Assembly (NCBI GenBank): GCA_015058945.1
Contig: SVBF01000012.1
Location: 1,763 to 65,762 of the forward strand
Direction: 5' to 3'
DNA: 64,000 nucleotides
DNA from: Erysipelotrichaceae bacterium
Lineage (GTDB): Bacteria > Bacillota_I > Bacilli_A > RFN20 > CAG-826
The notes under the pieces are model-generated. The model was not told the DNA's origin and made no database searches. It was given only the letters and a program-made list of their open reading frames with translations. The position numbers were made by a program, and so were the translations under genes. This document shows, piece by piece, positions 20,723 to 59,391 of this stretch; the first letter of the stretch is position 1; every line of letters starts with the position of its first letter.

Positions 20723-20729
20723 TTTGCCA

Positions 20730-20999
20730 TCGGCAACGAAAGGGAAGAGTAAGTTTGACCCTGGCCTAAGAGAGAGTCCCCCATCGGCTGGAAGGGGATA
20801 GGCAAAGACAGACAGAACATGGCCCTGGAGCCGTCTAGGCGATAGGTAGTCTAGGCCGGGAGCGCCCGTCAAAGCGCGAGGGTATATCCATCATTGGCGT
20901 ACTCAGTAAGGTCTATCGCGGTGACGCGTGGATGAATCAAGGTGGTAACACGGGCTATTGCGTCTCGTCCTTGAATGAACAGGATGGGACGTTTTATTT
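20730..20999 (+). promoter_or_regulatory. T-box riboswitch with a Met (AUG) specifier
   Basis: Stem I AGAGA and GCTG motifs, specifier ATG at 20819-20821, T-box AAGGTGGTAACACG at 20939-20952, terminator at 20961-20999; upstream of a Met ABC transporter. Confidence 0.93.
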
Positions 21000-23622: not shown

Positions 23623-23698
23623 GGGGCATTAGCTCAGCTGGGAGAGCGCCTCGTTCGCAACGAGGAGGTCGGCGGTTCGATCCCGCTATGCTCCACCA
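23623..23698 (+). tRNA. tRNA-Ala(CGC)
   Basis: GGGGCAT acceptor stem with G3:U70, anticodon arm CCTCG-TTCGCAA-CGAGG, GGTTCGATCCC T-arm, encoded CCA. Confidence 0.97.
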
Positions 23699-44499: not shown

Positions 44500-44834
44500 A
44501 TAAATCGAAACTTCCTTAATGTGGGAAACCCCCAGACGTCCCTAATTATATGCAGGGCGCGCGAAAAAACATTCAGATGCCATGATTTTTTACGAGACGA
44601 AAGGCCAAAAGCGCTATGCTAAGTGGCGTTGTTTTGGTAAATCGCCCCCTCTTAGCAAATGCACTTTTCGCTCTCGTCCATTTGGCAAACAGTGAAATAC
44701 ATATAAAAACAAAGGCTTTGGGTCGTGACGAACGCCCGATAAACGGGATAGATAAGCCGTGTTTGAGAAAAAATCCGAAGCAATTGCTGATATTTTTGTC
44801 TCTAAAAACGGCGTCCTATGTTATAAAAAATAAC

Positions 44835-47369
44835 ATGAAGAAAACCTGGGTCATCGTCACCAACGTGCTCATCATGCTCGGGATTTTGTCGTTCACCGTG
44901 GTTTATTCCACGCTGGAGAGCCGCAACGAAACCCAAAGGCAGATCGAGCATTATGAGCACAACACGGTCACCATGGAACGCGTCACCGAAAACTATCTCG
45001 AGGGCGAGCAGCGCATTTGCGACGTGTGGGCCCATTACATCAACAGCGCGAACATGACCATCGACGAGGCCGTGTCCTTCGTTCGCATTTCCCATGTCCT
45101 TCCGACCGCTTCCGCCCACATCATCTACGCCGACACGTTAAAGGGCCTTTCCACCAGGGCGAAGATCACGACCACCGACGATTACGACGTTTCCTATGAA
45201 GGCGTGAACCTATTCTCCGACATGGGTTGGATCGACGAGATCGGGGAATCCATCAATATTTCCCGCTCCTACACCAACCCCATCAACGGGGAACAATCCA
45301 TCGCCTTTTGTAACTTCGTGAACCTTCGCGACGATTCAAGCGGAGGGAAACGCAGCGCCATCTTGTTGCGCGTTTTGCCGGAAGAGGAGTTGACCCAAAA
45401 GTGGGTTTTCCCTAACGACGAATTCACCGAAGCCGAACTAACCATCATCGACGCTGATGGTAATTACACCCTCAAAGACACCTCCACCAACGCCAATTTC
45501 TTCGAGTACTACAAGTCATACAACAAACACGATCCCGCCGAAGTGCAGAAATTCTTTGAACAGATCACCTCGACGACGGGCTCCTTCTTCATGTTGGACT
45601 CTCATGGGACGGAATGCATCGTCGCCTATACGCCCTTCAAAAAGGCGGGTGGTTGGACTTTGCTCAACATCATGCCCGTGAAGGATCTGAACACCCGCAC
45701 GCAGAACTGGCTTCTCATCGGCGTCGTTTCGGCGGGTCTGGTCTTGCTCTTCCTTTTCGACATGGTTTTCATGCTCTATTTCAACAAGAGACTTCAGGCT
45801 GCGGCCAAAGAGGCGGAGAAGGCGAACAAGGCCAAGACCGACTTCCTCTCCACGATGTCGCATGACATCCGCACCCCGATGAACGCGATCATCGGCCTCA
45901 CGACCATCGCGGAGAAGAATATCGACGATAAGAAGTCGGTGAAGGAGAGCTTGCGCAAGGTCGGCCTCGCGAGCAACCACCTTCTCACCCTAATCAACGA
46001 TATCCTGGATATCTCTAAAGTCGAAAGCGGCAAGTTGAATCTTTCCCCGCAGACCTTCTCCATCGTTGAGACGGTGGATAACCTCATGAACCTCTCCCAG
46101 CCGATGGTCAAAGAGAAAAACATCCAGTTCGCTTTCAGGACCAGTGGCATGGAATGGGAATATCTCCACGCCGACCAGCTCCGACTGAACCAGATCTACA
46201 TCAACCTTCTCTCCAACGCGATCAAATACACCGAACCCGGCGGTTCCGTCAGCGTCGACATGAAAGAGGAGCCGAGCGAAAAAGAGGGCTGCGTCAAGCT
46301 TACCTACGTCGTTTCGGATACCGGCATGGGCATGACGAAAGAATTCATGGCGAATATGTATACGCCCTTCGCCCGTCAGACCGATAGCCGCGTCAATAGC
46401 ATCCAAGGCACCGGATTGGGCCTGACGATCACCAAAAAGATGGTCGACCTCATGGAGGGGACGATCGAATGCCAAAGCGAGCCCGGCAAAGGGACGACCT
46501 TCACCGTCGTTTTGGACATTCCCTTTGTCGAGCGTGCGCATATGGAACTCAAACTTCAGCCCATCGACGTGCTGATCGCCGATGACGACGAAGTCCTCTT
46601 GGAGACGGCGGTGGATACGCTGAAATCCTTGGGCTTGCGCGTCGAGAAGGCCAGCAGTGGGGCAGAAGCATTGGGCATGGTCAAGCGCCGTCATGAGGAA
46701 AAGAACGATTACGGCGTCGTCATCGTCGATTTGAAGATGCCCGACATCGATGGCATCGAGACGATCCGTCGCATCCGTAAGGAAGTGGATTCGAACTTAC
46801 CCGTGTTGCTGATCTCTGCCTACGATTGGTCCGACGTCGAGAAGAAGGCAAAAGAGGTAGGGGCGAACGGTTTCTTGAGCAAACCTTTGTTCCGGTCCAC
46901 CCTTTATAACAAGATCAACGAACTGCTCGGCACCGAGACGAAAGCGACCGAATTGGAGAGTGACTATTCCGACCTCGAGGGGCTCAAGGTCCTCATCGCC
47001 GAAGACAACGACGTAAACTGGGAGATCATCTCCGCCTTGCTCGAACCTTTTGGGGTCATCACTGAGCGCGCGGAGAATGGTCGCGTCTGCGTCGAGAAGA
47101 TGAAGGCGGCCAAGAAAGGCGATTATCTGCTCATCTTCATGGACATCCAGATGCCGGAGATGAATGGGCTTGACGCGACCCGGGCCATCCGTGCCTTAGA
47201 CGATCCCTATGCTTCGTCCATCCCCATCGTGGCCATGACCGCGGACGCTTTCTCGGAGAACATCACCGAATGTTTGAGAGCGGGCATGAACGGCCATATC
47301 GCCAAACCCATCGATATCAAGTTGGTCATCAAGGAAATTCGCAGGATCAAGGAAGGGTCTCAATCGTAA
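44835..47369 (+). CDS. Hybrid sensor histidine kinase with two receiver domains
   Basis: TM-sensor-TM, [30 protein letters not shown], two REC domains. Confidence 0.93.
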
Positions 47370-47452
47370 AAAAGCCACTGTGCGCCGTTATGGCCCTTTT
47401 GGCATAATGGAGTAGTCCACAAAAAGTAGACAATCCATAATAAGCCCAACCC

Positions 47453-48817
47453 ATGATTCGGTTTGCCCATTACCAACAAGACGATTACCAACGGGTCTGC
47501 GATTTTTTGATCCGGCTATATGAGAAGAGCGAACATCACCGTAATTGGAATTGGGCGAGGTTTGAATGGATGTATGGCCATCCCCTTACCACGGTGGAAT
47601 TCCTTGGCGATATGGGACTATGGTTCGATGGCGATAGCATCGTTGCCGCCGCGTTGATCGACATGTTCCTCGGCGAGGCTTTCATCGGTGCGTTGCCTGA
47701 GTATCAAACTCTATATCCCGAAGTGTTGAAATACGCCTTTGAACATCTAAAGGACGACCGAGGACTTGGGGTTACGATCAGCGATTTGGCTAATGAGGAA
47801 ATCAATGCCGCCTTGGCCCAAGGATTCTTCAAAACCGATGGTGAAGAAGCCGTTTATGAGATCGAACTAAGCAATGCTTTCGGCATTGTTTTGCCAGCGG
47901 GATTCATCATTGAGACATTCGATGCCCAAGAGCATGCAAAAGAGATCGAATGGCTGTTTTGGCAAGGTTTTGATCACGGCTCGAATTATGAAGAATTCCT
48001 GCAAAATAGGAGCGAAACCGTGCAAAAACGGCCTCATTTCAACAAATTTCTTTGCATTATCGCAAGAAACGAAAAAGACGAAATCGTGGCCAGTGCCTCA
48101 ACTTGGTATGACGAAAGAACCGACTATGCCTACCTCGAGCCCGTTTGCGTGATCCCCTCTTGCCGCGGCAAAGGAATCGGGAAAGCGGTGGTGCTCACCG
48201 CCTTAAACCACGCCCGTTTCCTCGGGGCGAAAAAGGCAATCGTCAATTCGGACCAAGTCTTTTATCAGCGTCTTGGTTTTAAAGAGAAGGGACGCTATCC
48301 CTTCTACTGGAAGAAGGAAGAGAAAACGGTAAACGGAGTCATCTATAAGCTGGAGAAATTATTAGGCAAGGGGAAGGGTGGCTATTCCTATCTCGCTAAA
48401 TGCGATGGGAAGGAATATGTCTTAAAGCAGATCCATCATGAGCCGTGCGAATATTATCAATTCGGTAACAAGATCGAGGCTGAGAAAAACGATTACCAAA
48501 GACTCTTGGATGCCGGCATCCGCATCCCGAAGATGATCGACGTCGATACCGAGAACGAAATCGTCCTCAAGGAATATATCGAGGGCGATGTGATTTCGGA
48601 TCTCATCGACCGAGGAGAATCGGTCGAGGCCTATATCCCTCAGGTGCGCGAGATGGCGCGCCTCGCCAAAGAAAAGGAACTCAACATCGATTATTACCCC
48701 ACGAACTTCGTGGTTCGGGACGAATTGCTCTATTACATCGATTACGAATGCAACCAATACATGGACGAATGGAGTCTGGACAATTGGGGCATCAAACATT
48801 GGTCTCCTGCGCGATAG
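47453..48817 (+). CDS. GNAT acetyltransferase fused to a protein-kinase-like domain
   Basis: VCVIPSCRGKGIGK and FYQRLGF (GNAT); LGKGKGG, VLK, DYYPTNF, YIDYE (kinase fold). Confidence 0.8.
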   Translation: MIRFAHYQQDDYQRVCDFLIRLYEKSEHHRNWNWARFEWMYGHPLTTVEFLGDMGLWFDGDSIVAAALIDMFLGEAFIGALPEYQTLYPEVLKYAFEHLKDDRGLGVTISDLANEEINAALAQGFFKTDGEEAVYEIELSNAFGIVLPAGFIIETFDAQEHAKEIEWLFWQGFDHGSNYEEFLQNRSETVQKRPHFNKFLCIIARNEKDEIVASASTWYDERTDYAYLEPVCVIPSCRGKGIGKAVVLTALNHARFLGAKKAIVNSDQVFYQRLGFKEKGRYPFYWKKEEKTVNGVIYKLEKLLGKGKGGYSYLAKCDGKEYVLKQIHHEPCEYYQFGNKIEAEKNDYQRLLDAGIRIPKMIDVDTENEIVLKEYIEGDVISDLIDRGESVEAYIPQVREMARLAKEKELNIDYYPTNFVVRDELLYYIDYECNQYMDEWSLDNWGIKHWSPAR

Positions 48818-48900
48818 CGCGCATATAGTGGAATTGTTTTTGATCTTGTGGCACGTTTGTGGCGGGCCATGACTATCATATTGTCGTCGGGAAAAAAACG

Positions 48901-49956
48901 ATGAGACGCAGCGAAAGAAACGAACTCTACAAATGCAACACCAAGGGTTTGATCGACCTCATGAACGACCCGAGGTATATGAATAACAAGAACAACCAGT
49001 TTGGCGCCGTGCTTGGCTACCTCGCCCGCCATGGGATGTCCAACGGAAACTCCAAAGGCGAATTCCTTGATTTGGTCTACGCCGCGAGGAACGAATTCAT
49101 CGCCCAAGCCGCGAAACAACATGTCGGCGCCAAGGGCGAAGTCGCCTATGACCAACTCGGCCCCGGCGATGCCAAACTCAAGGCCTTTATCCGCGATCCG
49201 CTTCCGATTTTGCAACGCGAGATGAAGGGCTTTTCCGAACGCAAAGAGAACTTCGCCGCCGACGAAGATCCGGACATCGTCGATTATTACCGTCGTCTCA
49301 AGACCAACGCGGACATTCTTTCCATCGAACTGGGATCCGATTTCGACCAGACGCGCAATCGTCCGGAAAACACCGAACTCGTGGATGTGATGAACCGCCT
49401 CAACAAAAAGATCCCTGAGAACGCGACCACTCCCGAAGAGGCGTTAAAGAAAGCCAACTCCGGCTTCTTCGGCACCTTATTCCGCCGCCAATCCAAGGAA
49501 TTCACCGCCTTTAAAACCGCCTTTGATCAGTTCCGCGACCCGACCAAAGTCCTCAATAGCGGAAACGTCGGCAATCTCGAAGAGAAGACCACGGCCTACC
49601 TCAAGCACCTCAACCCCGCATTCGAATACAAGAAAGGCATGGATAAGGAAGCGTTCCTTGCCAACCTTTCCAAGGGACAGAAGGCCCGCGCCGAGTTCGC
49701 GCTTAACGTCCTCGACTCCATCGCCGAGCATAAAGAGATGAAGCCGTACATGGAAAACGTCGATAACGCCATCAAGGGCAAACCGGTCAAAGAAATCGCC
49801 GAACCTAAGGCGGAGGTCAACGATCCGAAGATTCAAGGCCAATTCCAAAACCAAATCGCCGTCGAACTCGGCGAGGCTAAGGAGAGCAACGACATCGTCA
49901 AAGAAGAACCCGCCGAGGAAAAAGTGGCGGAAAACGGACCGGAGATGTCCAACTAA
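48901..49956 (+). CDS. Hypothetical protein, paralog family member A (acidic C-terminal tail)
   Basis: Long ORF with host-like codon usage; motifs shared with 52711-54207 and 55584-56726. Confidence 0.8.
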   Translation: MRRSERNELYKCNTKGLIDLMNDPRYMNNKNNQFGAVLGYLARHGMSNGNSKGEFLDLVYAARNEFIAQAAKQHVGAKGEVAYDQLGPGDAKLKAFIRDPLPILQREMKGFSERKENFAADEDPDIVDYYRRLKTNADILSIELGSDFDQTRNRPENTELVDVMNRLNKKIPENATTPEEALKKANSGFFGTLFRRQSKEFTAFKTAFDQFRDPTKVLNSGNVGNLEEKTTAYLKHLNPAFEYKKGMDKEAFLANLSKGQKARAEFALNVLDSIAEHKEMKPYMENVDNAIKGKPVKEIAEPKAEVNDPKIQGQFQNQIAVELGEAKESNDIVKEEPAEEKVAENGPEMSN

Positions 49957-49963
49957 GCAAACG

Positions 49964-50926
49964 ATGAACAAAAAGATAATGAAATTCGGCAAAGTGCTCG
50001 CGCCGTTACTCGCGTTATCTTTTCTTTCTTCCTGCGTTCATCGTCCCGAGACGAAGAACGTCTATATCGCTTGGAGCGACAGGCAAAACAGTTATAGCTT
50101 TATCTCCACGTTAAAGACCGTGACCTCCATCGGCTGCAACCCCGTCGTCTTGGACATGGTTCGGTCCAACGATTTGTCTTATGGCGAGGACGGAACGTTG
50201 ATCGATGCGGTCGACGAACATCGCATCCTCTTGCCCGAACCGGCAAGAAAGGTGAAGGCCAGCGCCTGGCGGCATTCTAACGTCAAAGACATCATGAAGG
50301 ACGTGAAATACGTGATCTTCCCCGGCGGCTCGGACATTTGTCCCACACTCCGAAGAACGGAAGGGGAGTGGCATGGCATCGAAGGGGATACCGATTACGC
50401 CCCGGAACGGGACGTCTCCGACTATCTGCTGATGTCCTATTGTCTCGACCACAGCATCCCCGTGTTCGCGATTTGCCGCGGCATGCAGATGTTATCCGTC
50501 GTCTCCGGCGCGACGATGATCGACGATATCCCAACTTATTTCGCTTCGTTAGGAAAAGGCGACAAGGAAACTCATCGCGACGCGGAGAAAACCGTCTTCG
50601 CCGCCCATGACGTCGACGTGACCGACGACTCCTCATTGCTTTATAAGATCACCAAGCAAACCAAACTGGAGAAAGTGCCGTCTTGGCATCACCAGGGCGT
50701 TCTTTCCGTGGAAGGCACCCCATTGTCCGTTACGGCCAAGACGACCACCGACGGCGTTTCGATCATCGAAGCGGTGGAACGGAAGGACCTCCCCTTTTGC
50801 CTCGGCGTCCAATTCCACCCCGAAGTCGCGGTGCGTAAGGCGGTGGACAAAGAAGCGGACGCCGGGAATTATATGGACCAACAAACCGCCGCATCGTTCT
50901 TCCGTGCCTTGGTCGAGCCCAAATAA
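49964..50926 (+). CDS. Peptidase C26 / gamma-glutamyl-gamma-aminobutyrate hydrolase family lipoprotein
   Basis: Lipobox LSSC, PGGSD, AICRGMQ, SWHHQG, GVQFHPE. Confidence 0.88.
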   Translation: MNKKIMKFGKVLAPLLALSFLSSCVHRPETKNVYIAWSDRQNSYSFISTLKTVTSIGCNPVVLDMVRSNDLSYGEDGTLIDAVDEHRILLPEPARKVKASAWRHSNVKDIMKDVKYVIFPGGSDICPTLRRTEGEWHGIEGDTDYAPERDVSDYLLMSYCLDHSIPVFAICRGMQMLSVVSGATMIDDIPTYFASLGKGDKETHRDAEKTVFAAHDVDVTDDSSLLYKITKQTKLEKVPSWHHQGVLSVEGTPLSVTAKTTTDGVSIIEAVERKDLPFCLGVQFHPEVAVRKAVDKEADAGNYMDQQTAASFFRALVEPK

Positions 50927-51074
50927 TCAAAACTATTTTCATATATTTAAATACGCATAAACGCACGCGTGCATAATATCGAATTCGCGAAAACCTGCGT
51001 TTACTATGAAAATTCGCGAAAATTTAGATACTTTGTATCTACATAAGATTTTTAAAGATTTTTGCAAAAAATGC

Positions 51075-51102
51075 TTGCACACTTTTTCGATGCGAGTATA
51101 GT
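51075..51102 (+). promoter_or_regulatory. Sigma-A-type promoter driving the candidate giant ncRNA
   Basis: TTGCAC-N16-TATAGT, same spacing as the tRNA and T-box promoters in this window; AT-rich upstream region. Confidence 0.75.
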
Positions 51103-51107
51103 TATGT

Positions 51108-52565
51108 GTTCCGCAGGGAACGCCAAGCCGCAAGGTAAGCGAAACTGTGGTAACCACCTTAACATAGTTAAGGTGAGGGGAATGTGTGATGCCCCTCGGG
51201 AACTTCGGTTCCTCAAAGGTCTACTGCCTCGAAAGAGACAAAGGCTGGTCCTGGACTAACCCATGGCCCGCTAAGGAATCGCTCGCCCTTCGGTAAACCG
51301 ATGAATGGAGCTGGAAAGGAAGAAAGAGGTCCTGCGATGGATCCTCGAGGACTCCTTCCCTAAGGGCTCCCGCGCAGAACGGGAACGCCACCGCCTCTCG
51401 TCCCAGGCGGCTAGTGAAACTAGAGAGAATGGGAGATGCGGACAGCCTTGGAAAAGGAACATCCGCAAGAAGGGTTAAGCGAACTTCGTCGCGTCCCTTC
51501 CCAGGATTCGCCCCCTGGCTCGTGAACGAGAAAACGCGGCGATGCCGTCAAACCTTCCTTGCGATAGGGGGGATGCTGCGGCGAAGGGTAACCCCCTGGA
51601 GGATTCCCGCCTCCCACTGGTAAACCAGAACAAACAGGGCCGACGGTGGACTTGGTTCGTCCCAAGGCAAACCGTCCAAGGCGAAGGCGCGAGCCTCCGC
51701 ACGGAACATCCCATCCTTCAGATGCGCTCTGAGAACATGGGTCCCAAGCTAACCTACTCCCGCAAGGGCATGGCCAACTTGGTCAAGGGGCTGCGGCGAA
51801 AGCCGATGTCCCCGACGGAATTCGAGCCGTCGCGTGGTAGAACCACGGCAATTCCATCGAATGGGTCGTGAGATCCGGAGAGGGCAAATCCCTCAGACCC
51901 CGCAGAAAGGCCGCGGTAAACCCGAAAATCTCTGCTCCCTCCGCTGCTATGGCCTAGTAAGCCCTCTACGCGGTACGGTAGTTCCCCGGGCATAAGCCTG
52001 CGGAACGATGGTTGTCCCGCCATTGCGTGAAACGCTGATCATGGGAATGTGAACGCGTCGGTCTTCTTCGGAAGGCAGGGGCGTCCAGAAACGCCTGGGA
52101 ATTCATAACCAGGTGGTGCCCAAAGAGGCCCGGCGCGCGGTAAACCGCTGGAAAGGCCTCTTCCCTAGGGAGTAATTCCTAGGCGAGTGAGGAGACCTTG
52201 GTCCCCTCGGGAAGTCGTTCCACCCCTCAATCGTGAAGTTGGAACGTGGCTTGGACACTTAGGCGGACGAAGATGTAACCTAAGGTTCCGGTCGAGACCG
52301 ACGGTCGTCTGTTGACGTTGCGTCGGCCTAGGAAGATAAGAGCTCTTCTCAGCGGTACACCGCAGAACCAAAAACTTGTTCCCGAATCCCTCCTGCGTTA
52401 GGGCCAGGCGGTGGTAAGGAACGAATCCCGTAAGGGATGTGGTTGGTTGGAATCTCCCACGAGGTAAACCTCAAATACGAAATGTCCCGGCGATATTGGA
52501 GCTAGACAAGCCGTTAAACCGGAAAGCCGAGTGACACCACGCAGCGATGCGTGGCGTTTTCTTTT
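51108..52565 (+). ncRNA. Candidate giant, highly structured non-coding RNA (~1.46 kb) of unknown class
   Basis: No credible ORF; bounded by a promoter and a terminator; dozens of hairpins, ten with GNRA loops, two with cUUCGg loops, five with GGTAAACC; G-U pairs fit a + strand RNA. Confidence 0.8.
52534..52565 (+). terminator. Intrinsic terminator ending the candidate ncRNA
   Basis: CCACGCA-GCGA-TGCGTGG followed by CGTTTTCTTTT. Confidence 0.8.
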
Positions 52566-52710
52566 ATACAGTAGGTTTTCGCAAGTCTCATCGGAGTGCT
52601 TAAAGACGATAAGCGGCAACATATTCGCGAAAAAGTTGCTTTAGTGTGACACATCTGTTGCGTCGGATGCCTTATGTTATTATCAGTCGAACGAAAAAGG
52701 AGGCGACATT

Positions 52711-54207
52711 ATGCCAGTTTACGAGCCCTTTACCAAAGAAGAAAAAAGAGACATCATCGCGCGTCACCATTACCTCGTCGATGAGATGAACAAGACCCTC
52801 GGCGGCGTTTTGGAATACGAGGACGAAAGAATCCTGCAGAAGCTGGAAGACCCGAAGGAGGTCGCCGCCTATCGTTTGCATGAGGAAAACAAGCTGAGAA
52901 ACGAGAAGCGTCAGAGAATCATGGACGACCTCGGTTTCCGATTTGGCACCCAGGGCATGGACCACAATCCTTTGAACCGCCACATCAAATATCTCATGAA
53001 GCTTGGCGACGATCCCAAGGACACGGAATATAACGAAAAGTTATACCAGGAATATCTCCGGAATCCCGAGAAAATCATTTACCGTGAGTATAAGAAGATT
53101 TTGGAGCTCAATCCGCAGCAGCTTTACGATCTAGGCAACGACAAGCAGAAGATCGCCGAGTTCTATATGGATAACACGGGCCTATGCGAGGGCGCGTTCG
53201 TCGTGAACTCGGTCATCACCAACAGCAACGCCAAGGCGACCAAGGCGTTACGTAACGGCCTTGCTTCGATGGCTAAGCCGATCGAATCGCTCAACGAAAT
53301 CGGCCACACGCTCAAGAACAATGGCATCGATAGCTTCGCTTGCCCGACCCTCACCCAAGAGCAGACTTTGCTCGCGATGACGAACCAGACCCTATTCTTA
53401 GGTAATCCCAACCCCGTGTTGACGGAGGTCATGAACTGCAACCTCATCCCGATCGAAACCCCGCATGACTATTTCCAAAAGTTCGTCGATTATGGCATCG
53501 ACATAAACCAGCCGAAGTTCTTCACCAAATACAAAGCGGTCAAAACCGATCCGGAGACGGGCAACAAAAGGGAAGTGGGCTTCCATGAACTCTTTGATGA
53601 CGACGACCCCAACGTCCGCATCGAAATCCGCAGCAAGGACGAGCAGGAGGAAATCCTCGCCGTCAATCGCGCCTACCAAGACAAATACGCGGAAAAGTTC
53701 CAAGCCCGCATCGCCACGAAGCTCAACCAGATGAACTTCGACATCAACCAGCTCGAGGAAGAGCGTAAGGGTAGTTGGGTGGAACGTAATGTTCTCCATT
53801 CCACGTCCCGCGAATGGACGGAATTCATCGGCGCCTTCAAGGACTATAACAACCCCGAGCATCCCAATTACCTCCGCAAGGACATCCTTAAGCCCAAAGC
53901 CCAGGCCTACATGAACCGTAAACACCGCCAAGGCTATGCGACGGTGGAGGACATGAAGGGCACTTCGCGTAGCCGTGGTACATTGGCTCAGGCCGTCATC
54001 GATACCTGCGATGAGTTCGAGGAGCAAAAGAACCAGATCACCGAGGACATCGAGATCGCGATCAATACCGGGTTCAATGGCAAGGTCGGGCTTATCATCA
54101 ACGCCAAAGAAGTCGACGACAACGACAACGTGGCGGAACCGGAGGAAGAGAAATCCAACGAGATCAAAAACGAAATCGTTAAAGATCAAGGGTCGCTCGA
54201 GATGTAG
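52711..54207 (+). CDS. Hypothetical protein, paralog family member B (acidic C-terminal tail)
   Basis: AAGGAGG RBS, extended -10 upstream, terminator downstream; shares the C-terminal motif with A and C. Confidence 0.85.
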   Translation: MPVYEPFTKEEKRDIIARHHYLVDEMNKTLGGVLEYEDERILQKLEDPKEVAAYRLHEENKLRNEKRQRIMDDLGFRFGTQGMDHNPLNRHIKYLMKLGDDPKDTEYNEKLYQEYLRNPEKIIYREYKKILELNPQQLYDLGNDKQKIAEFYMDNTGLCEGAFVVNSVITNSNAKATKALRNGLASMAKPIESLNEIGHTLKNNGIDSFACPTLTQEQTLLAMTNQTLFLGNPNPVLTEVMNCNLIPIETPHDYFQKFVDYGIDINQPKFFTKYKAVKTDPETGNKREVGFHELFDDDDPNVRIEIRSKDEQEEILAVNRAYQDKYAEKFQARIATKLNQMNFDINQLEEERKGSWVERNVLHSTSREWTEFIGAFKDYNNPEHPNYLRKDILKPKAQAYMNRKHRQGYATVEDMKGTSRSRGTLAQAVIDTCDEFEEQKNQITEDIEIAINTGFNGKVGLIINAKEVDDNDNVAEPEEEKSNEIKNEIVKDQGSLEM

Positions 54208-54223
54208 CAAATACCAAAGATAG

Positions 54224-54258
54224 AGGCGGGCGCGTCCAAAGGCGCATCCGCCTTTTCT
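54224..54258 (+). terminator. Intrinsic terminator
   Basis: AGGCGGGCGCGTC-CAAA-GGCGCATCCGCCT followed by TTTCT. Confidence 0.7.
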
Positions 54259-54421
54259 CATGCCATCGTTTTTGGAAAATAAGCGGGATTTGCGGGACAT
54301 TTTGCATCCCAAAACCCGCAAAAAGCGCTTTTTTGTGGCTCGCAATAAGATTGCGAATCGCGCGATGAAAGGGGTTTCTTGTCGATTTACTCGCCATGAT
54401 GGGTAAATTATACGTAGTATC

Positions 54422-55507
54422 ATGAATCCCGTTCTTGAGTACTTTATCCAAAACTGGGCGCTGGTCTTAATCCTCCTCGCCTTCGCGATCATGTTGTGGG
54501 TCACGATCTTCCTCGACCGGAAAACCGTGAGGCGCATGTACATCCTGATCGTTTTCCTTTTCCTGCTTTCCATCTGCGTCTACACCGAGTTCCGCCTCGC
54601 GGAGACCAAGCATTATCCGGAATTGCGTTTGGCGATGATGGCCATACGTTATAGCGCCACTCCAGTTATCGTCGCCTTCATCATCTTCACGCTGGTGAAG
54701 CGGGCTCGTTGGTATGTGTTTTTGCCAGTAGTCGCCCTCACGGTGCTTAACGTGATCTCCATTTGGACCGGTATCGTCTTCGGGCTCGACGCAAATGGCG
54801 AACTCGTTCGCGGCGCCCTCGGCTATTTCCCTTATATCGCCGTGGGCATTTATAGTTTCTTCCTCGTCTTCATCCTTATCCGCCAAAGCAACAAGCAGGC
54901 CGTGGAAATCGTCCCCATCGCCTTCTTGGCCTTCACCTTCGCCTCGGGCTTGGTCTTCCCCTTCGTGATGGGAAAGGAATACTCCAAGATCTTCTGCTCG
55001 ACCATCGCCGTCGGCCTATTCGTCTATTACGTCTTCTCGATCCTGCAGCTCACCACGAAGGATGCCTTGACCGGTTTGCTGAACCGTCAAGCTTACTACT
55101 CCTTCGTCCGCAAGAACTCCAAGGACATCACTGCGATCGTCTCCATTGACATGAACGGCCTCAAGACCATCAACGACAACCAGGGCCACCTCGCCGGGGA
55201 TGAGGCGCTTACGACTTTGGCCTTATGCTTCACCAAAGCCACGAAGAACAAACAGTACGTCTACCGCATTGGCGGCGACGAATTCGTCATCGTTTGCAAA
55301 AAGACCAGCAAAGCGGATTTGAAGCTCATGATCAAATCCATCAAAGAAAACGTCGCCGAGACGGAATACTCCTGCTCCATCGGCTATTCGTTCGCCTTTA
55401 ATGGCGAAAAGACGCCGGAAGAAATGGCCAAGGAATCGGACGCGATGATGTACGCCCATAAGGCCAAGTTCTATTCCGAAAGCAGCAATAATCGCCGCCT
55501 TCAGTAA
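54422..55507 (+). CDS. Membrane-bound diguanylate cyclase (GGDEF)
   Basis: About 7 TM segments, DALTGLLNR, D.NGLK.IND..GH..GD, YRIGGDEF. Confidence 0.92.
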   Translation: MNPVLEYFIQNWALVLILLAFAIMLWVTIFLDRKTVRRMYILIVFLFLLSICVYTEFRLAETKHYPELRLAMMAIRYSATPVIVAFIIFTLVKRARWYVFLPVVALTVLNVISIWTGIVFGLDANGELVRGALGYFPYIAVGIYSFFLVFILIRQSNKQAVEIVPIAFLAFTFASGLVFPFVMGKEYSKIFCSTIAVGLFVYYVFSILQLTTKDALTGLLNRQAYYSFVRKNSKDITAIVSIDMNGLKTINDNQGHLAGDEALTTLALCFTKATKNKQYVYRIGGDEFVIVCKKTSKADLKLMIKSIKENVAETEYSCSIGYSFAFNGEKTPEEMAKESDAMMYAHKAKFYSESSNNRRLQ

Positions 55508-55583
55508 AAAGTTTCTTCTTGTGACAGTTTTGTTGCATGCGTCCGCGTAAGATATTTTCGTAACCTCAGAAAAAGGCAAAACC

Positions 55584-56726
55584 ATGCCGAAGCTCACAAA
55601 AGAAGAACTTCAACGCGTCCGCTATGTCTCCATGGCGGATTTCGCGCGCCGCTTCGACCAGATTCAGGACTTTGACGACAAGATGTCCTTCGCGACGCGT
55701 TACTTGCTTTGCCATGGCATGAAGGGCGCCGAGAACGACTATAGCTTTCCCGAGGCGCTCCATATCGCCCGCACGAAGATCGCCGACGCCTCTGCCAGGA
55801 TGAAGGAGCAGTTCTTCGCGCAATCGGACGAGGATTTGACCAAACGCCCCCATATTGTGAACCCTTGGCTTAAGGACGAAAGGGCCGACCTTGCGGCCGA
55901 AGCCTTCATGGGCAATCCGACGGGCTATGTCCAAGGCGCCGCCAAGGAGCTCGCCCAAGAAATGGGCAGCAGCTCCGGTTTTAACATTGACCTAAAGGCG
56001 AACTGCGAACGCATCTCCCATTTGCCCGAGGAGCAGACGAACCGCGCCGTTTTCGCCCTCGACGCCACGCCGACGGCCTTCGACGTCAAGATGCGCTTGG
56101 AAACCAAGCTCGGCGGTAGGGCGGAACTAGAAAGCTTATACCAAACCGCGAAGCCAGGTCTTTTCTCCAGAATCCTCGGCGCCTCTTCCCCCGCCTCGCA
56201 CAAACTCGACGCCGCCTATAAGGCGTTCCAAAACCCGAGGGACCGTGCCTTTGGGGACATGAACGCCATGGAGAAGGCATCCAATGATTATTTGGGCTAT
56301 AAAATCCCTACTTGGAAACCTGGGCAAAAGATGCCAAACGACGTCATGGGTGTCCTTAATCCCGCCGAGAAGGCCAGGGCCAAGCTCTCCGTCTACATGC
56401 TCGAATCCATCGAAGAGCAACGCGCGATGGAAGACGACTTCCGCACGATGGTGAAAGCCTGTAGCGCGAAGAGCCTTTCCTATGATGACGTTATCGCCTC
56501 TAGGGTGACCCTGCGCGAAACGTCACAGGAAGAGCCGCATGTCGAAGACGCCGTCAAAGAAGAAACCAGAATCAAATCGCCTCGCGGGCTCGATCAGGCC
56601 TCCTTCCAATCCTTTTTGGAATATGACGCCCAAGACGAGACTTTGATGGAGAGTAGGGGAGAGGCAACCGAAGAGGAGCCGTCCATCGATGAACCTGCGA
56701 TTGACGAAGCCGCGGTGGTGCAATAA
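55584..56726 (+). CDS. Hypothetical protein, paralog family member C (acidic C-terminal tail)
   Basis: Full-length motif similarity to 48901-49956. Confidence 0.82.
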   Translation: MPKLTKEELQRVRYVSMADFARRFDQIQDFDDKMSFATRYLLCHGMKGAENDYSFPEALHIARTKIADASARMKEQFFAQSDEDLTKRPHIVNPWLKDERADLAAEAFMGNPTGYVQGAAKELAQEMGSSSGFNIDLKANCERISHLPEEQTNRAVFALDATPTAFDVKMRLETKLGGRAELESLYQTAKPGLFSRILGASSPASHKLDAAYKAFQNPRDRAFGDMNAMEKASNDYLGYKIPTWKPGQKMPNDVMGVLNPAEKARAKLSVYMLESIEEQRAMEDDFRTMVKACSAKSLSYDDVIASRVTLRETSQEEPHVEDAVKEETRIKSPRGLDQASFQSFLEYDAQDETLMESRGEATEEEPSIDEPAIDEAAVVQ

Positions 56727-56731
56727 GGTGA

Positions 56732-57493
56732 ATGGCAATGACCATACTTCTCGTCGACGATGAAAAACTACAGCTGCACCGCTTGCAAGACGCGGTGGCC
56801 AAAGTACTCCCCGAGAGTGAGGTTTTGTCATTTGGCAACCCCCTAGAGGCGTTAAAGGAAACCGAGGACCTCAAGATTGACCTCGCCTTCCTCGACATTG
56901 AGATGCCGGGGATGAACGGAATCCAAGTCGCGCGGAAACTGAAACTGCGTGACCCGCGGACCCGCATCGTCTTCGTCACCGCCTATGACCATTACGCGAT
57001 GGAGGCGTTCCGCGTCCACGCCTCCGGCTATATCACCAAACCCGTCAGTGAGGGAAAGATCCGCGAGGAGATGGAACAGGTCACGCCGTCGTTCCTTCCC
57101 TCCTCAAAAAAGCTGCAGGTGAAGTGCTTTGGGAACTTTGAGGTTTTCCATGACGGCGTCCCCCTGAAATTCAAGCGCAGCAAATCGAAGGAACTTTTCG
57201 CCTACCTCATCGACCGTGAGGGGTCGGCCGCGACGGCGAGCGAACTTAACGCGATCCTTTGGAACGAGGACCATCCTTCCTACCTCCGCAACCTCGTCAG
57301 CGACATCCAACAGACGCTTAAGGCGGTCGGCTGCGCGGATGTGTTCGTCAAGCGTCACAACGAATGCTACATCGACGTCTCCAAGATCGATTGCGACGCC
57401 TACGAATTCAAGAAAAACAACCCGGACGCGATACGGATGTACCGGGGACAATACATGTTCCAATACTCGTGGGCGATGTTCGTGGATGAGTAG
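56732..57493 (+). CDS. Response regulator (REC plus SARP-type winged-helix output)
   Basis: LVDDE, FLDIEMPGMNG, FVTAY, YITKP; VKCFGNFEV, KSKELFAYL. Confidence 0.9.
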   Translation: MAMTILLVDDEKLQLHRLQDAVAKVLPESEVLSFGNPLEALKETEDLKIDLAFLDIEMPGMNGIQVARKLKLRDPRTRIVFVTAYDHYAMEAFRVHASGYITKPVSEGKIREEMEQVTPSFLPSSKKLQVKCFGNFEVFHDGVPLKFKRSKSKELFAYLIDREGSAATASELNAILWNEDHPSYLRNLVSDIQQTLKAVGCADVFVKRHNECYIDVSKIDCDAYEFKKNNPDAIRMYRGQYMFQYSWAMFVDE

Positions 57494-57794
57494 CAAACGC
57501 CTGCGGATTAAGTAAGGACTTTACAATTGTAATCCCCATTAGGCAAATTATGGAAACCGCCGTGTTCAAAAAGGCGGGTTTTCCTTAATATGGCTTTCCT
57601 ATTATTTTTTAAATAATATTTTAGGGATTTTCGCTTGGTTTCGCGGTGAGTCGAAAGTGAAAAAAGCCGTTTTAGTCCAAGGCGTTCGACCCTCCTGAAT
57701 TAACCCTTGTTGCACATTTGTGGCATTTTTAAATATAGACTTCAGTCAGATATGCTGGAGAAGACTCTTCTCCCATACCGCCGCCCTAAACGAC

Positions 57795-59387
57795 ATGAAG
57801 AACAAGACAGCCATCACAATCCTCGCCGCCTTAGCCATCTCCTCGATGCCTTTTATGGCTGCGTGCAGCGGTTCGACTACCATCGTCGGGATTCATATGA
57901 CCAACCCTGAGACGATGACCGTCTGCTATGGCAATTTCTCCTATGAGGGAATCGGCGTCACCGTCGATTTCCGCGACGGAGGTTCGACCGAGATCCCCCT
58001 TACCGAGGACATGGTCCCGGAAGTGGAACGGCTGAAGTTTTTCAAAATCGGCGAGCAGAACATCGAGATCGTCTATCGCGGCAAGTTCACGACCACCATG
58101 CCCGTGAACGTCACGTTAAATCAATTTAAGGATTCGTACGCGCTAGTCGGGTATGAGTGCGTGTATGACGGCTCGCCCCATGCCGTCGGATTAAACCAAG
58201 AACTACCCGAAGGCGCGGTCATCACTTATCCCTATGGCAACATCTTCACCAACGCGGGCGTCTATGAAGTCGTCGGCGTCATGAGCAAGAACGGCTATGA
58301 GTCGAAGACCCTCACGACGACGCTCACCATCCTACCCGCCGAGCGTGACGCCTCAGGCATCGTCTTTGAGGACACCACGGTGGTCTATAACGGCGAAATG
58401 CGCTCCATCGAGGCGACCAACGTCCCCGAGGGCGTGGAAGTCACTTATGACGCCTACGACTATGAACAAGCCATTCGCATCAACAAAGTCGTCAACGCCG
58501 GCAAGTATCGCATCGTCGCCCATTTCAACGACACCAGCACCAACTACACAAAGATTCCCGATAAGGAAGCCGTCCTAACCATCGAGAAAGCCGATTATGA
58601 CGTCTCGGACATCAAGCTTCCCGACGCGATCAAGGAATACGATGGCCAGGATTACGTCGCCCAGATCACCAACAAAGGTCGTCTCCCCACCGGCGTAAGC
58701 GTCAATTACACCTATTACGATGAGCAGGGGAACAAGGTCAACAGCAACGCCAAAGTCGGCAATTACACCATCGTCGCCTCCTTCGTGGGCGGCGACCTCG
58801 CCAACTACAACCCCATCGAACCGCTCACGGCGACGCTTTCCGTCTCAAAGCGCGTCATCAAGATCAAAGACAAAGTCACCTTTGAGGGCAAAACGGTCAA
58901 CTTCGACGAGAACGTGACCCATTCTTTGGCCATCGCCGGGACGCTCCCCGACACCGTGAAAGTCACCTATGAAAACAACGACCAGGTCTATGCCGGCGAA
59001 TACGAGGTGAAGGCTAAGTTCTCCGCCGTCAGCGAAAACGAGAAGGTGGACCTCGAGGAGCTGACCGCCTATTTGATCATCAACCGCGTGCGCCGCTCGG
59101 TCCCGATGTATAACGAGACCACCAAGGCCTACGACCGTCCTTTCGCCGCAAGCGACATCAAGATCAAAGACGGCGTCGTCACCATCGAAGGCTATCAGAC
59201 CGACATCTTCAAGCTGACTTCGGTCGTCTTCTCCGACTTGCTGACCAACGAAACCGTCGCCCCCGAAAACCTCGTCAGCGGCACCACCTACAAATACATC
59301 GTCACCTTTGAATATATCGACGAGTCGGTTGGGAGCAGTGTGATTTTGTCCCAGGAATCGGACAACATCACCTATGTGGCGGAGTGA
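57795..59387 (+). CDS. Surface lipoprotein with repeated MBG-like Ig domains
   Basis: Lipobox MAAC; repeated YDG...LP.GV.V.Y...NAG.Y.V.A.F units. Confidence 0.8.
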   Translation: MKNKTAITILAALAISSMPFMAACSGSTTIVGIHMTNPETMTVCYGNFSYEGIGVTVDFRDGGSTEIPLTEDMVPEVERLKFFKIGEQNIEIVYRGKFTTTMPVNVTLNQFKDSYALVGYECVYDGSPHAVGLNQELPEGAVITYPYGNIFTNAGVYEVVGVMSKNGYESKTLTTTLTILPAERDASGIVFEDTTVVYNGEMRSIEATNVPEGVEVTYDAYDYEQAIRINKVVNAGKYRIVAHFNDTSTNYTKIPDKEAVLTIEKADYDVSDIKLPDAIKEYDGQDYVAQITNKGRLPTGVSVNYTYYDEQGNKVNSNAKVGNYTIVASFVGGDLANYNPIEPLTATLSVSKRVIKIKDKVTFEGKTVNFDENVTHSLAIAGTLPDTVKVTYENNDQVYAGEYEVKAKFSAVSENEKVDLEELTAYLIINRVRRSVPMYNETTKAYDRPFAASDIKIKDGVVTIEGYQTDIFKLTSVVFSDLLTNETVAPENLVSGTTYKYIVTFEYIDESVGSSVILSQESDNITYVAE

Positions 59388-59391
59388 GAAG

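Follow-up and report, generated by a model that had tools for sequence, protein, structure and literature searches.

The window analyzed here is a stretch of 64,000 nucleotides (nt) from the genome of an Erysipelotrichaceae bacterium (1.46 Mb in 20 contigs, 92% complete). At positions 51108-52565 (+), it carries a stand-alone RNA gene of about 1.45 kb, as delineated from the sequence and from a comparison with its homologues. We consider its product to be a real structured non-coding RNA (ncRNA) of a not-yet-described family, with a probability of roughly 95%. The single sequence is not compelling when taken alone, and the case rests on the comparison of homologues. An earlier note, drawn up from the letters of this DNA, had already proposed a structured plus-strand RNA with its own promoter and terminator, and the elements that it listed are indeed found where it placed them, or within 1-2 nt. 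The promoter (51075-51102, +) comprises a -35 hexamer TTGCAC (51075-51080), a 16-nt spacer and a -10 hexamer TATAGT (51097-51102). Transcription would start 6-8 nt past the -10 hexamer, giving a transcribed unit (51108-52565, +) that ends with the T-run of an intrinsic terminator (52537-52565, +). The latter is composed of the stem-loop CCACGCAGCGAUGCGUGG (52537-52554, with a GNRA loop) followed by the T-run CGTTTTCTTTT.

Three full-length copies of the gene are present in the source genome. They are about 71% identical over their full length and carry the same polarity signals. When the three paralogues are aligned, their flanks prove unalignable. Similarity starts approximately 80 nt 5' of the -10 hexamer, at a palindrome of the form TAGATAC-N3-GTATCTA, continues across an A/T tract, both promoter hexamers (-35 and -10) and the entire RNA, and breaks off at the T-run. 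This conservation from promoter to terminator is observed in the three paralogues and in around 100 further homologous loci, so that the proposal of a unit with its own signals holds in both their position and their sequence.

The fold was derived by comparing 29 distinct full-length copies, which remained from 47 matches after removal of six exact duplicates and 12 copies cut by a contig end. This alignment, A2, comprises sequences of 1386-1583 nt with a mean column identity of 61%; apart from the single 1386-nt copy, the family ranges from 1432 to 1583 nt. The RNAalifold consensus structure on A2 contains 349 pairs, arranged in 75 helices with 48 hairpins. A proportion of 89.1% of the alignment cells at these pairs is able to pair, compared to 75.1 ± 0.2% upon shuffling (0 out of 500 shuffles reach the observed value) and 36.7-46.6% when the partners are slid. 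Changes on both sides are seen in 249 of the 349 pairs (162 ± 5.7 shuffled, 129-171 slid) and in 1520 cells (477 shuffled, 271-452 slid), and the covariation score amounts to 0.419 (0.175 shuffled, 0.08-0.12 slid). The same picture emerges from an extended set to which 58 new metagenome sequences were added before thinning to 61 sequences below 95% identity: 89.0% of the cells pair and double changes occur in 271 of the 349 pairs. Covariation of this strength bears out the claim of a structured RNA. The local helix set is solid, while the global domain closure is not. Apart from a short recurring hairpin motif, no large internal duplications or modules were found.

Two tertiary contacts were detected by a covariation scan of the unpaired columns. 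The first is an H-type pseudoknot (51402-51433, +), in which the loop CCCA (51402-51405) pairs with UGGG (51430-51433); 92.2% of its cells in A2 are paired and three of its four pairs show both-side changes. The second is a kissing loop between two hairpin loops on the plus strand that lie 785 nt apart, CUUCG (51484-51488) and CGAAG (52268-52272), with 95.2% of the cells paired and both-side changes in all five pairs. Its variants across the family include CUUUG/CAAAG, CUCC/GGAG, CCUCA/UGAGG, UCCCA/UGGGA, CUUCC/GGAAG, CCUUAC/GUAAGG and AGUUCCA/UGGAACU. Taken jointly, both contacts are paired in 93.9% of the cells (84.2% shuffled, 38-57% slid) and eight out of nine pairs change on both sides. 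The kissing loop could be either intramolecular or intermolecular; one quaternary kissing loop of the ROOL RNA was first predicted from covariation as a tertiary contact, according to the part of 10.1101/2024.12.08.627333 that deals with it. Other long-range helices proposed by the covariation scan clash with well-supported local helices and were judged to be chance.

Sequence conservation is distributed unevenly along the RNA. Mean identity within the family is 0.55-0.59 over 51104-52090, rises to 0.75 over 52090-52260, drops to 0.59 over 52260-52330 and reaches 0.73 over 52330-52565. The 3' third is thus constrained in sequence and the 5' two-thirds mainly in structure. The most conserved core (52090-52260, +) comprises the loop GAAUUCAUAA (52099-52108), the arm GGUGCC..GGCGCGCGGUAAACCGCUGGAAAGGCCUC and the hairpin GGAAGUCGUUCC..GGAACG. 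The second conserved block (52330-52536, +) comprises the hairpin GGAAGAUAAGAGCUCUUCUC, a GGUACACC cap, CAAAAACUUG, a GGUAAACC cap and GUUAAACC; pairing in its helices 65, 66, 70 and 71 reaches 96-100%, and both-side changes occur there.

A hairpin cap, GGUANACC, recurs along the molecule and was absent from the earlier note. It consists of two invariant G-C pairs that close a UAAA, UAGA or UACA loop and it is found at six sites, starting at 51292, 51619, 51915, 52139, 52354 and 52463. The form GGTAAACC occurs five times in the 64 kb window, each time inside the RNA and on the plus strand, against an expectation of 1.12 (0 out of 100 shuffles reach five). At four sites, the caps are retained in 21-26 of the 29 copies, and the remaining sites show close variants. 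At site 1 (51292-51299, +), GGUAAACC is present in 24 of the 29 copies and the others have GGUGAACC, GGUAGACC or GGUACACC; both closing G-C pairs are invariant and the stem below (helix 12) covaries. Site 2 (GGUAAACC, 51619-51626, +) reads GUAAAC in 18 and GUAGAC in six of the 29 copies, on top of helix 28 with 97.9% paired cells, and site 3 (51915-51922, +) reads GGUAAACC in 21 and GGUAGACC in five of them. Site 4 (GGUAAACC, 52139-52146, +) is located in the GGUGCC..GGCGCGCGGUAAACCGCUGGAAAGGCCUC arm of the core, and sites 5 (GGUACACC, 52354-52361, +) and 6 (GGUAAACC, 52463-52470, +) in the second conserved block. A related cap, GUGAAAC (52027-52033, +), is shared by 27 of the 29 copies, and a tally of hairpin loops adds GUAGAAC at 51837, GUUAAACC at 52513-52520 and CGUGCACG at 51522, all on the plus strand. 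Most caps are followed by GAA within a few nt on their 3' side.

Of the loops highlighted by the earlier note, the GNRA loops have stood: they are common and conserved as a type. The individual UUCG loops (CTTCGG at 51203-51208 and 52066-52071, +) are not conserved in the family, and one of them is specific to the window copy. At the 5' terminus, the hairpin GUUCC-GCAG-GGAAC (51108-51121, +; helix 1, with a GNRA loop) has 86.2% of its cells paired and both-side changes in three of five pairs, its loop being GCAG, GCGG or GCAA. A 9-bp stem (51155-51163 with 51167-51175, +) can also be read from the sequence. At the 3' end, the terminator stem (helix 75) is paired in 100% of the cells with three pairs changing on both sides; the consensus scan calls this terminator with seven pairs, five of which are G-C. 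In the source genome, the stem is found at the three RNA genes and in one solo copy, and nowhere else. An apparent CCA-like 3' end (ACACCA, 52534-52539) was discarded as it is not conserved, the base after CACC varying with the terminator stem. The GC content is 0.56-0.60 within the RNA and roughly 0.45-0.57 in the flanking genes.

On the promoter side, TATAGT shows no or almost no variation within the main clade. The -35 hexamer is more variable and elsewhere reads TTGAC(A/G) or TTGCA, with TTGACG or TTGACA occupying the -35 place in other copies. A consensus promoter scan misses the promoter at 51075 in the window copy, because its -35 hexamer agrees with TTGACA at just three of six positions; the counts of promoter-like and terminator-like sites in the window are those expected by chance from shuffles. 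Directly 5' of the -35 hexamer lies an A/T-rich tract (51042-51074, +; ..GATTTTTAAAGATTTTTGCAAAAAATGC), which is kept across copies as ..AAAAAATTTTGCAAAAAA(G/T)TG and which we take to resemble the UP elements of strong promoters. Further upstream, the palindrome TAGATAC-TTT-GTATCTA (51025-51041, +) is perfect and lies about 70-85 nt 5' of the presumed transcription start. In this perfect form it occurs once in the window and, across the source genome, solely upstream of the three RNA paralogues. An equivalent is found at the same place in around 20 of the 34 copies whose upstream sequence extends to 125 nt or more. Its arms vary in concert among copies (TAGATACC/GGTATCTA, TAGGTATC/GATACCTA, TAAATATC/GATATTTA, TAGATGTCT/AGACATCTA). 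They measure 7-9 bp and are of the TAGAT..ATCTA type, with the inner half-sites swapped in one copy. As the arms covary and half-sites can be swapped, a hairpin or cruciform fits better than a fixed protein-recognition sequence. The palindrome appears from its sequence and placement to be a cis-element specific to these RNA genes, with an operator or a DNA or RNA hairpin as candidate roles. Co-regulation with ribosomal RNA (rRNA) finds no support, the 16S promoter region of the source genome sharing neither the palindrome nor the upstream tract.

The distribution of the RNA is narrow. With BLASTn, it is found in seven out of 24 other genomes of the genus, and 16 genomes spread over seven further families of the order give no match. 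R1, a covariance model built on the conserved core of 161 nt, identifies it in 20 of 58 genus genomes (the source genome included), with one to three matches each, and in just five of the 32 high-quality genus genomes. A further scan with R1 of 150 genomes that sample the order evenly (147 from 46 other genera and three from the genus) yields no match; it was run with stricter Infernal filters, and its three genus genomes are negative in the genus scan as well. An exact 22-mer of the core retrieves 36 stretches from a collection with one genome per species (185,579 species), of which 35 carry the whole element according to nhmmer. The record titles of these 35 describe metagenome-assembled genomes (MAGs) from the fore-stomachs of cattle, goat, roe deer and water deer or from unspecified gut samples, labelled as Bacilli, Bacillales, Firmicutes, Erysipelotrichaceae or Candidatus Enteromonas; in GTDB, they probably fall into the order RF39. 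The remaining stretch (L054, Gemmatimonadaceae), which is the sole match outside Bacillota, agrees over the seeded 25 nt only and was discarded. In metagenomes, the 22-mer retrieves 102 stretches, and the element is present in all 80 of those examined. Gathering homologues with BLASTn and nhmmer, as the earlier note had recommended, thus leads to the genus itself and to gut and rumen MAGs. Altogether, part of one genus of gut and rumen Bacilli with small genomes carries the RNA, each of these genomes having one to three diverged copies.

An IQ-TREE phylogeny of the 29 copies splits a long variant (1558-1583 nt, two rows) from the other 27 with a support of 100/100. Copies from one genome mostly fall in different clades. 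The window copy groups with those of loci L033 and L050, and the other two copies of the source genome are sisters. From this placement of the paralogues it follows that duplications have been both old and recent, with the fold kept in every lineage. The two long copies (L017 and L023) represent a deeply diverged subtype with extra insertions, for instance after the three-way arm of the core, and with a promoter further upstream. They keep the pseudoknot, the kissing loop (in other sequences) and the GGUANACC caps, and the long variant coexists with a main-type copy in one genome.

Signs of expression come from public sequencing data. The RNA is found in 24 runs from 17 studies; 19 of these runs are recorded as RNA, and 12 contain at least half of the sampled words. 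Expression was read from the assembled contigs of four runs, in which strand and true ends are unreadable. In run X2, an exact contig over 51128-52142 has a depth of 2595.5 and another over 52210-52353 a depth of 3541, compared to 2.1-5.6 for the flanks. In run X1, 8008 small contigs lie inside the RNA with a summed depth of 4.5e5-1.3e6, against 92 and 208 for the flanks, whose contigs break off at 51123 on the upstream side and resume at 52540 on the downstream side. Cover in runs X11 and X13 is confined to 51124-52511 with uncovered flanks, which was not used as evidence. By contig depth, which is a poor measure of expression, the steady-state level is hundreds of times that of the neighbouring genes. 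Loose contig ends inside the RNA match the sequences of other paralogues, so that these must be expressed too, and adapter-like loose ends are seen at 51121, 52521 and 52531. Among 56 metagenome contigs of at most 1500 nt, 35 start at 51096-51125, 27 end at 52525-52545 and 21 do both, with four extending further upstream and eight further downstream; among the longer ones, 17 out of 24 run through both ends. Such a pile-up of contig ends would be as expected from a discrete dominant transcript of about 1.42 kb. Transcript-sized contigs at very high depth agree with the transcribed unit put forward in the earlier note. As a separate observation, the region 52127-52388 reaches 2-100 times the depth of the rest of the RNA in runs X1 and X2, for which the likeliest explanation is the piling up of contigs from paralogues and strains, a stable processed fragment being the alternative.

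Several points nonetheless limit this evidence or weigh against the overall reading of the RNA. The fold was derived from the very alignment on which it was counted, which inflates the contrast with the slid partners. The long-range closing helices of RNAalifold are weakly supported, and the one between columns 963-967 and 1218-1223 is probably an error, given the better covariation of a local helix (51896-51899 with 51909-51912). Folding of the single sequence, which the earlier note had suggested as a check, gives modest statistics: the minimum free energy (MFE) z-scores are -2.75 and -3.73 (20 shuffles each), and the minus strand folds at least as well, at -609 kcal/mol compared to -589.6 kcal/mol for the plus strand. 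The orientation of promoter and terminator and the conserved G-U pairs point to the plus strand, in agreement with the original proposal; the consensus pairs comprise 793 G-U or U-G cells versus 335 A-C or C-A cells, an excess that is biased by the folding of the plus strand. The short metagenome contigs may derive from DNA as well as from RNA. Orthogonal kissing loops are not consistently found among the paralogues of one genome, as most share CUUC/GAAG, and there is thus no sign of selection for orthogonal intermolecular pairing. Finally, the spread is narrow and patchy: 38 of the 58 genus genomes, some of them very complete, are without the RNA, which is therefore dispensable for the genus.

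The earlier note had failed to recognise the class of the RNA, and the profile searches agree. All 4227 models of Rfam 15 were run at gathering score over the window and over eight other loci, the most divergent members included, and with permissive filters at E ≤ 10 over 50900-52750; no family matches the element in any of these. The models of ROOL (RF03087), GOLLD (RF01998) and OLE (RF01071) are silent likewise over the element and the eight other loci, with ROOL giving no match in the remainder of the window either. The ROOL model has no match in the whole genome, which is uninformative on absence as control genomes are equally silent; the OLE model has none in the source genome or the 58 genus genomes, which is equally uninformative as there was no positive control. 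The sole match of the small-subunit (SSU) rRNA model (RF00177) is the genuine 16S gene (G000:C12:61291-62807, 1526.8 bits), the three RNA copies being left unmatched, and 50900-52750 contains no SSU or large-subunit rRNA match at E ≤ 10. The RNase P models (RF00011 and RF00010) do not match the element, and a type B RNase P RNA is located away from it, at G000:C5:230205-230523 (250.5 bits). Group II intron models give no match at E ≤ 10, no conserved open reading frame (ORF) lies inside and the unit is intergenic with a promoter and terminator of its own. Since the model match failed for each of these families, the RNA is, as judged by its sequence, not a member of ROOL, GOLLD, OLE, SSU rRNA, RNase P or the group II introns. 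A match of 31.4 bits to the small nucleolar RNA sn2524 (gathering score 44) falls in the A/T-rich promoter region (51002-51098) and was dismissed as compositional. A likeness to universal 16S motifs (GUGCC..GCGGUAA, GAAGUCGU and GUACACCGC) was judged to be chance because the motifs are out of order. The only Rfam matches of the window are a T-box leader (20727-20975, +, 97.5 bits) and a transfer RNA (tRNA) gene (23623-23695, +, 63 bits).

In the window, the upstream neighbour of the RNA gene encodes a Peptidase_C26/GATase protein with what we read as a signal-peptide-like N-terminus, and the downstream neighbour (52711-54207) an orphan protein of 498 amino acids (aa). This orphan is found in 11 of the 58 genus genomes, all 11 of which carry the RNA. 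A partnership with the RNA was rejected, as an unrelated control orphan (48859-49956) has the identical distribution over 11 genomes, pointing to clade-specific gene content. A protein atlas returned nothing above chance, and the predicted structure of the 498-aa orphan is poor. The orphans at 48859-49956 (365 aa) and 52711-54207, which flank the RNA gene, are unrelated to each other, lack Pfam domains, are multi-copy and are rich in lysine and glutamate. Two genes downstream of the RNA, a GGDEF-domain protein of the diguanylate cyclase type is encoded (54422-55507, 2.1e-24); in locus L009, the gene next to the RNA copy on its upstream side encodes a homologue. Clustering of the ORFs of 38 loci reveals no conserved neighbour gene, the commonest being aminopeptidase-like (six loci) and an ABC transporter (five loci); no search was aimed at oapA. 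No tRNA gene is present in the 38 loci or in 44000-60000 of the window. A single transfer-messenger RNA gene, which scores 133.6 bits and encodes the tag peptide DNSHIYANRAQRASYACA, occurs on the minus strand of one locus (L036:5945-6343), about 2.5 kb from the RNA copy.

As to function, we tentatively favour, at odds just short of even, an architectural role as a self-assembling particle or a scaffold of a ribonucleoprotein (RNP), rather than a catalytic or regulatory one. This preference is drawn by analogy, because no neighbour is conserved among the 38 loci and because size, ornateness and abundance resemble those of OLE, ROOL and GOLLD. Like these, the RNA may act as a compact and stable architectural particle, possibly multimeric or loaded with protein. 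The 5' two-thirds would provide the structural framework. The 3' core, the GGUANACC caps with their A-rich linkers and the kissing loop would serve as docking modules. These might mediate RNA-RNA contacts, whether inside a single molecule or from one copy to another, or might offer binding sites for several molecules of a protein whose gene lies elsewhere. A more far-reaching version, possible but doubtful, is an RNA machine with the size and abundance of rRNA, being either a megadalton RNA-only assembly of protomers of about 1.45 kb or the RNA core of an RNP or ribozyme. An RNA-only assembly might be larger than the GOLLD cage, with the kissing loop and GGUANACC caps as possible inter-subunit bridges. 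Either machine would have evolved in a single lineage of uncultured rumen bacteria with small genomes and diversified there into several paralogous subtypes.

A large ribozyme is an unlikely alternative. It would have the invariant 3' core (52090-52260 and 52330-52536) as its active site and the variable 5' two-thirds as a scaffold, a layout likened to that of RNase P, group I and II introns and rRNA. Size and complexity are in a range otherwise seen for rRNA and self-splicing introns only, invariant and partly single-stranded nucleotides are concentrated in one region, and the pseudoknot and the long-range loop-loop contact imply a precise three-dimensional fold. On similar grounds, the ribozyme hypothesis has been put forward for OLE RNA in the abstract of PMC11332333. 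Yet neither a substrate nor a cleavage site nor a processing junction can be seen, the contigs report no joints or processed ends inside the RNA beyond a few low-depth skips, and no known ribozyme model matches. A stoichiometric or structural role would account for the very high abundance no less well than a catalytic one.

We attach a similarly small probability to a sponge that titrates or organises a protein in the manner of CsrB/RsmZ or 6S RNA. Each of six to ten near-identical GGUANACC hairpins would then capture a single molecule of an RNA-binding protein, whose free pool would be set by the abundance of the RNA. The recurrence of a short hairpin with an invariant loop and closing pairs fits such a role, as does the very high abundance; the dedicated upstream palindrome could give regulated expression and several paralogues would permit dosage control. 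Nevertheless, a sponge needs repeated sites only, while more than 300 further pairs, the pseudoknot and the kissing loop are maintained by compensatory change as well, far beyond what is found in known sponges. Moreover, no candidate binding protein is linked to the RNA, the adjacent orphan tracking the subclade just as the control protein does.

Still less probable, and in our view improbable altogether, is a relic or a non-autonomous mobile or selfish RNA without host function, such as an ORF-less group II intron, a retroelement or an RNA gene of a phage or satellite. Its appeal lies in the copy number of one to three, the lack of synteny, the patchiness within the genus and a RelB/PIN toxin-antitoxin cassette beside one copy. 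This cassette (L003:3092-3847, contig C7 of the source genome) consists, by Pfam match, of a RelB antitoxin (1e-10) and a PIN_3 toxin (1.7e-14) directly 3' of the C7 paralogue and is followed by a second near-perfect copy of the last 40 nt or so of the RNA, terminator included. It thus looks inserted, with duplication of the terminator by which it is bracketed. RelB and PIN_3 homologues are also encoded about 2 kb upstream of the RNA in L036. Against a mobile origin, no model of a mobile RNA matches at E ≤ 10 and no reverse transcriptase, integrase or transposase ORF lies inside the RNA or recurs beside it. Searches of a phage collection (with blastn) and of a plasmid collection found nothing, and viral contigs contain no stretch with the 22-mer; a 16-mer retrieves 18 chance stretches from them, with R1 scores of at most 16.1 bits compared to at least 73 bits for members. 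The window flanks are housekeeping-type genes, and no phage gene recurs across loci. Every copy comes with a promoter and terminator of its own instead of being embedded in a host gene. Lastly, the paralogues are old (about 70% identity, in different clades) and their structure has yet been kept, which indicates purifying selection rather than decay.

That the region is protein-coding, with a minus-strand gene or small plus-strand proteins and an incidental structure, has next to no probability: minus-strand ORFs of 105-339 aa do occur in most copies and the minus strand folds no worse by MFE, but such long ORFs are expected by composition from a T-poor plus strand (U 0.184), the longest ORFs vary among copies in strand position, frame, start and extent, column variability by codon phase shows no three-base periodicity (0.278/0.280/0.288), out of 14142 pairwise gap runs just 2173 have a length divisible by three (85% do not), Pfam has no match for the two longest ORFs of the family (339 and 295 aa, minus strand) or for the 109-aa plus-strand ORF of the window, and compensatory changes at 249-271 of 349 pairs are unexpected in coding sequence. 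There is no protein-coding signal in the RNA, and the ORFs of 50927-52710, of at most 109 aa, are as implausible as was suggested at the outset. The probability that remains beyond these readings belongs to something not yet imagined.

The RNA represents a new class without a detectable relative, rather than a proven new mechanism, and belongs descriptively among the large ornate ncRNAs. Structured bacterial RNAs of more than about 800 nt are, to our knowledge, essentially unknown besides rRNA and self-splicing introns. If confirmed, it may therefore be, as far as we know, the largest structured RNA class in bacteria that is neither ribosomal nor an intron. In full-text literature no earlier report of such an RNA was found; a listing in the supplement of a motif screen is possible. 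A fourth unrelated class beside OLE, ROOL and GOLLD would extend the range of sizes over which natural RNA architectures are known. With around 60 sequences below 95% identity known, the RNA is a good target for cryo-electron microscopy and for RNA-structure prediction. It may also explain a large share of the unassigned reads in ruminant gut metatranscriptomes, and it lends itself to testing how and why a bacterium with a reduced genome devotes so much to one RNA.

Among known systems, 16S rRNA shares with the RNA described here a length of about 1.5 kb, multiple copies, very high abundance, a strong promoter with an A/T tract, dozens of helices and GNRA-type caps. Nonetheless, the two are not homologous and the present RNA is confined to part of one genus. 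The raiA motif RNA is likewise an abundant structured ncRNA of Bacillota. It measures about 200 nt and is very widespread, having been reported in more than 2700 species; the present RNA is seven times longer, is confined to one genus and matches no Rfam model. OLE is closer in kind, as both are large and structured RNAs with high expression in anaerobic Bacillota. In the relevant parts of PMC11332333, shortened variants of OLE are described as common in the small-genome gut clades RF39 and TANB77, and OapA is called indispensable. With about 610 nt, OLE is shorter than the present RNA (1.45 kb). It mostly occurs as a single copy and has a genetic tie to oapA, whereas the present RNA occurs in up to three copies and lacks a conserved neighbour. 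ROOL resembles it as a large ornate ncRNA of rumen-associated Bacillota with covarying loop-loop contacts and no obligatory adjacent protein gene. Passages of 10.1101/2024.12.08.627333 report that ROOL reaches the abundance of 16S rRNA in one strain and that it is encoded in phages or prophages, often near tRNA islands. The present RNA is 2.2-2.5 times longer (1432-1583 nt versus about 580-660 nt for ROOL) and lies on the chromosome among housekeeping genes, with no tRNA in 38 loci and no occurrence in phage or viral collections. GOLLD also combines a multi-domain ornate fold with kissing loops. The same passages present it as the largest bacterial ncRNA class without assigned function until now, with many members above 800 nt, and as a phage-encoded RNA that rises during lysis. 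Compared to GOLLD, the present RNA is nearly twice as long and nothing links it to a phage. OLE, ROOL and GOLLD are all described there as forming RNA-only homo-oligomers through kissing loops and A-minor contacts.

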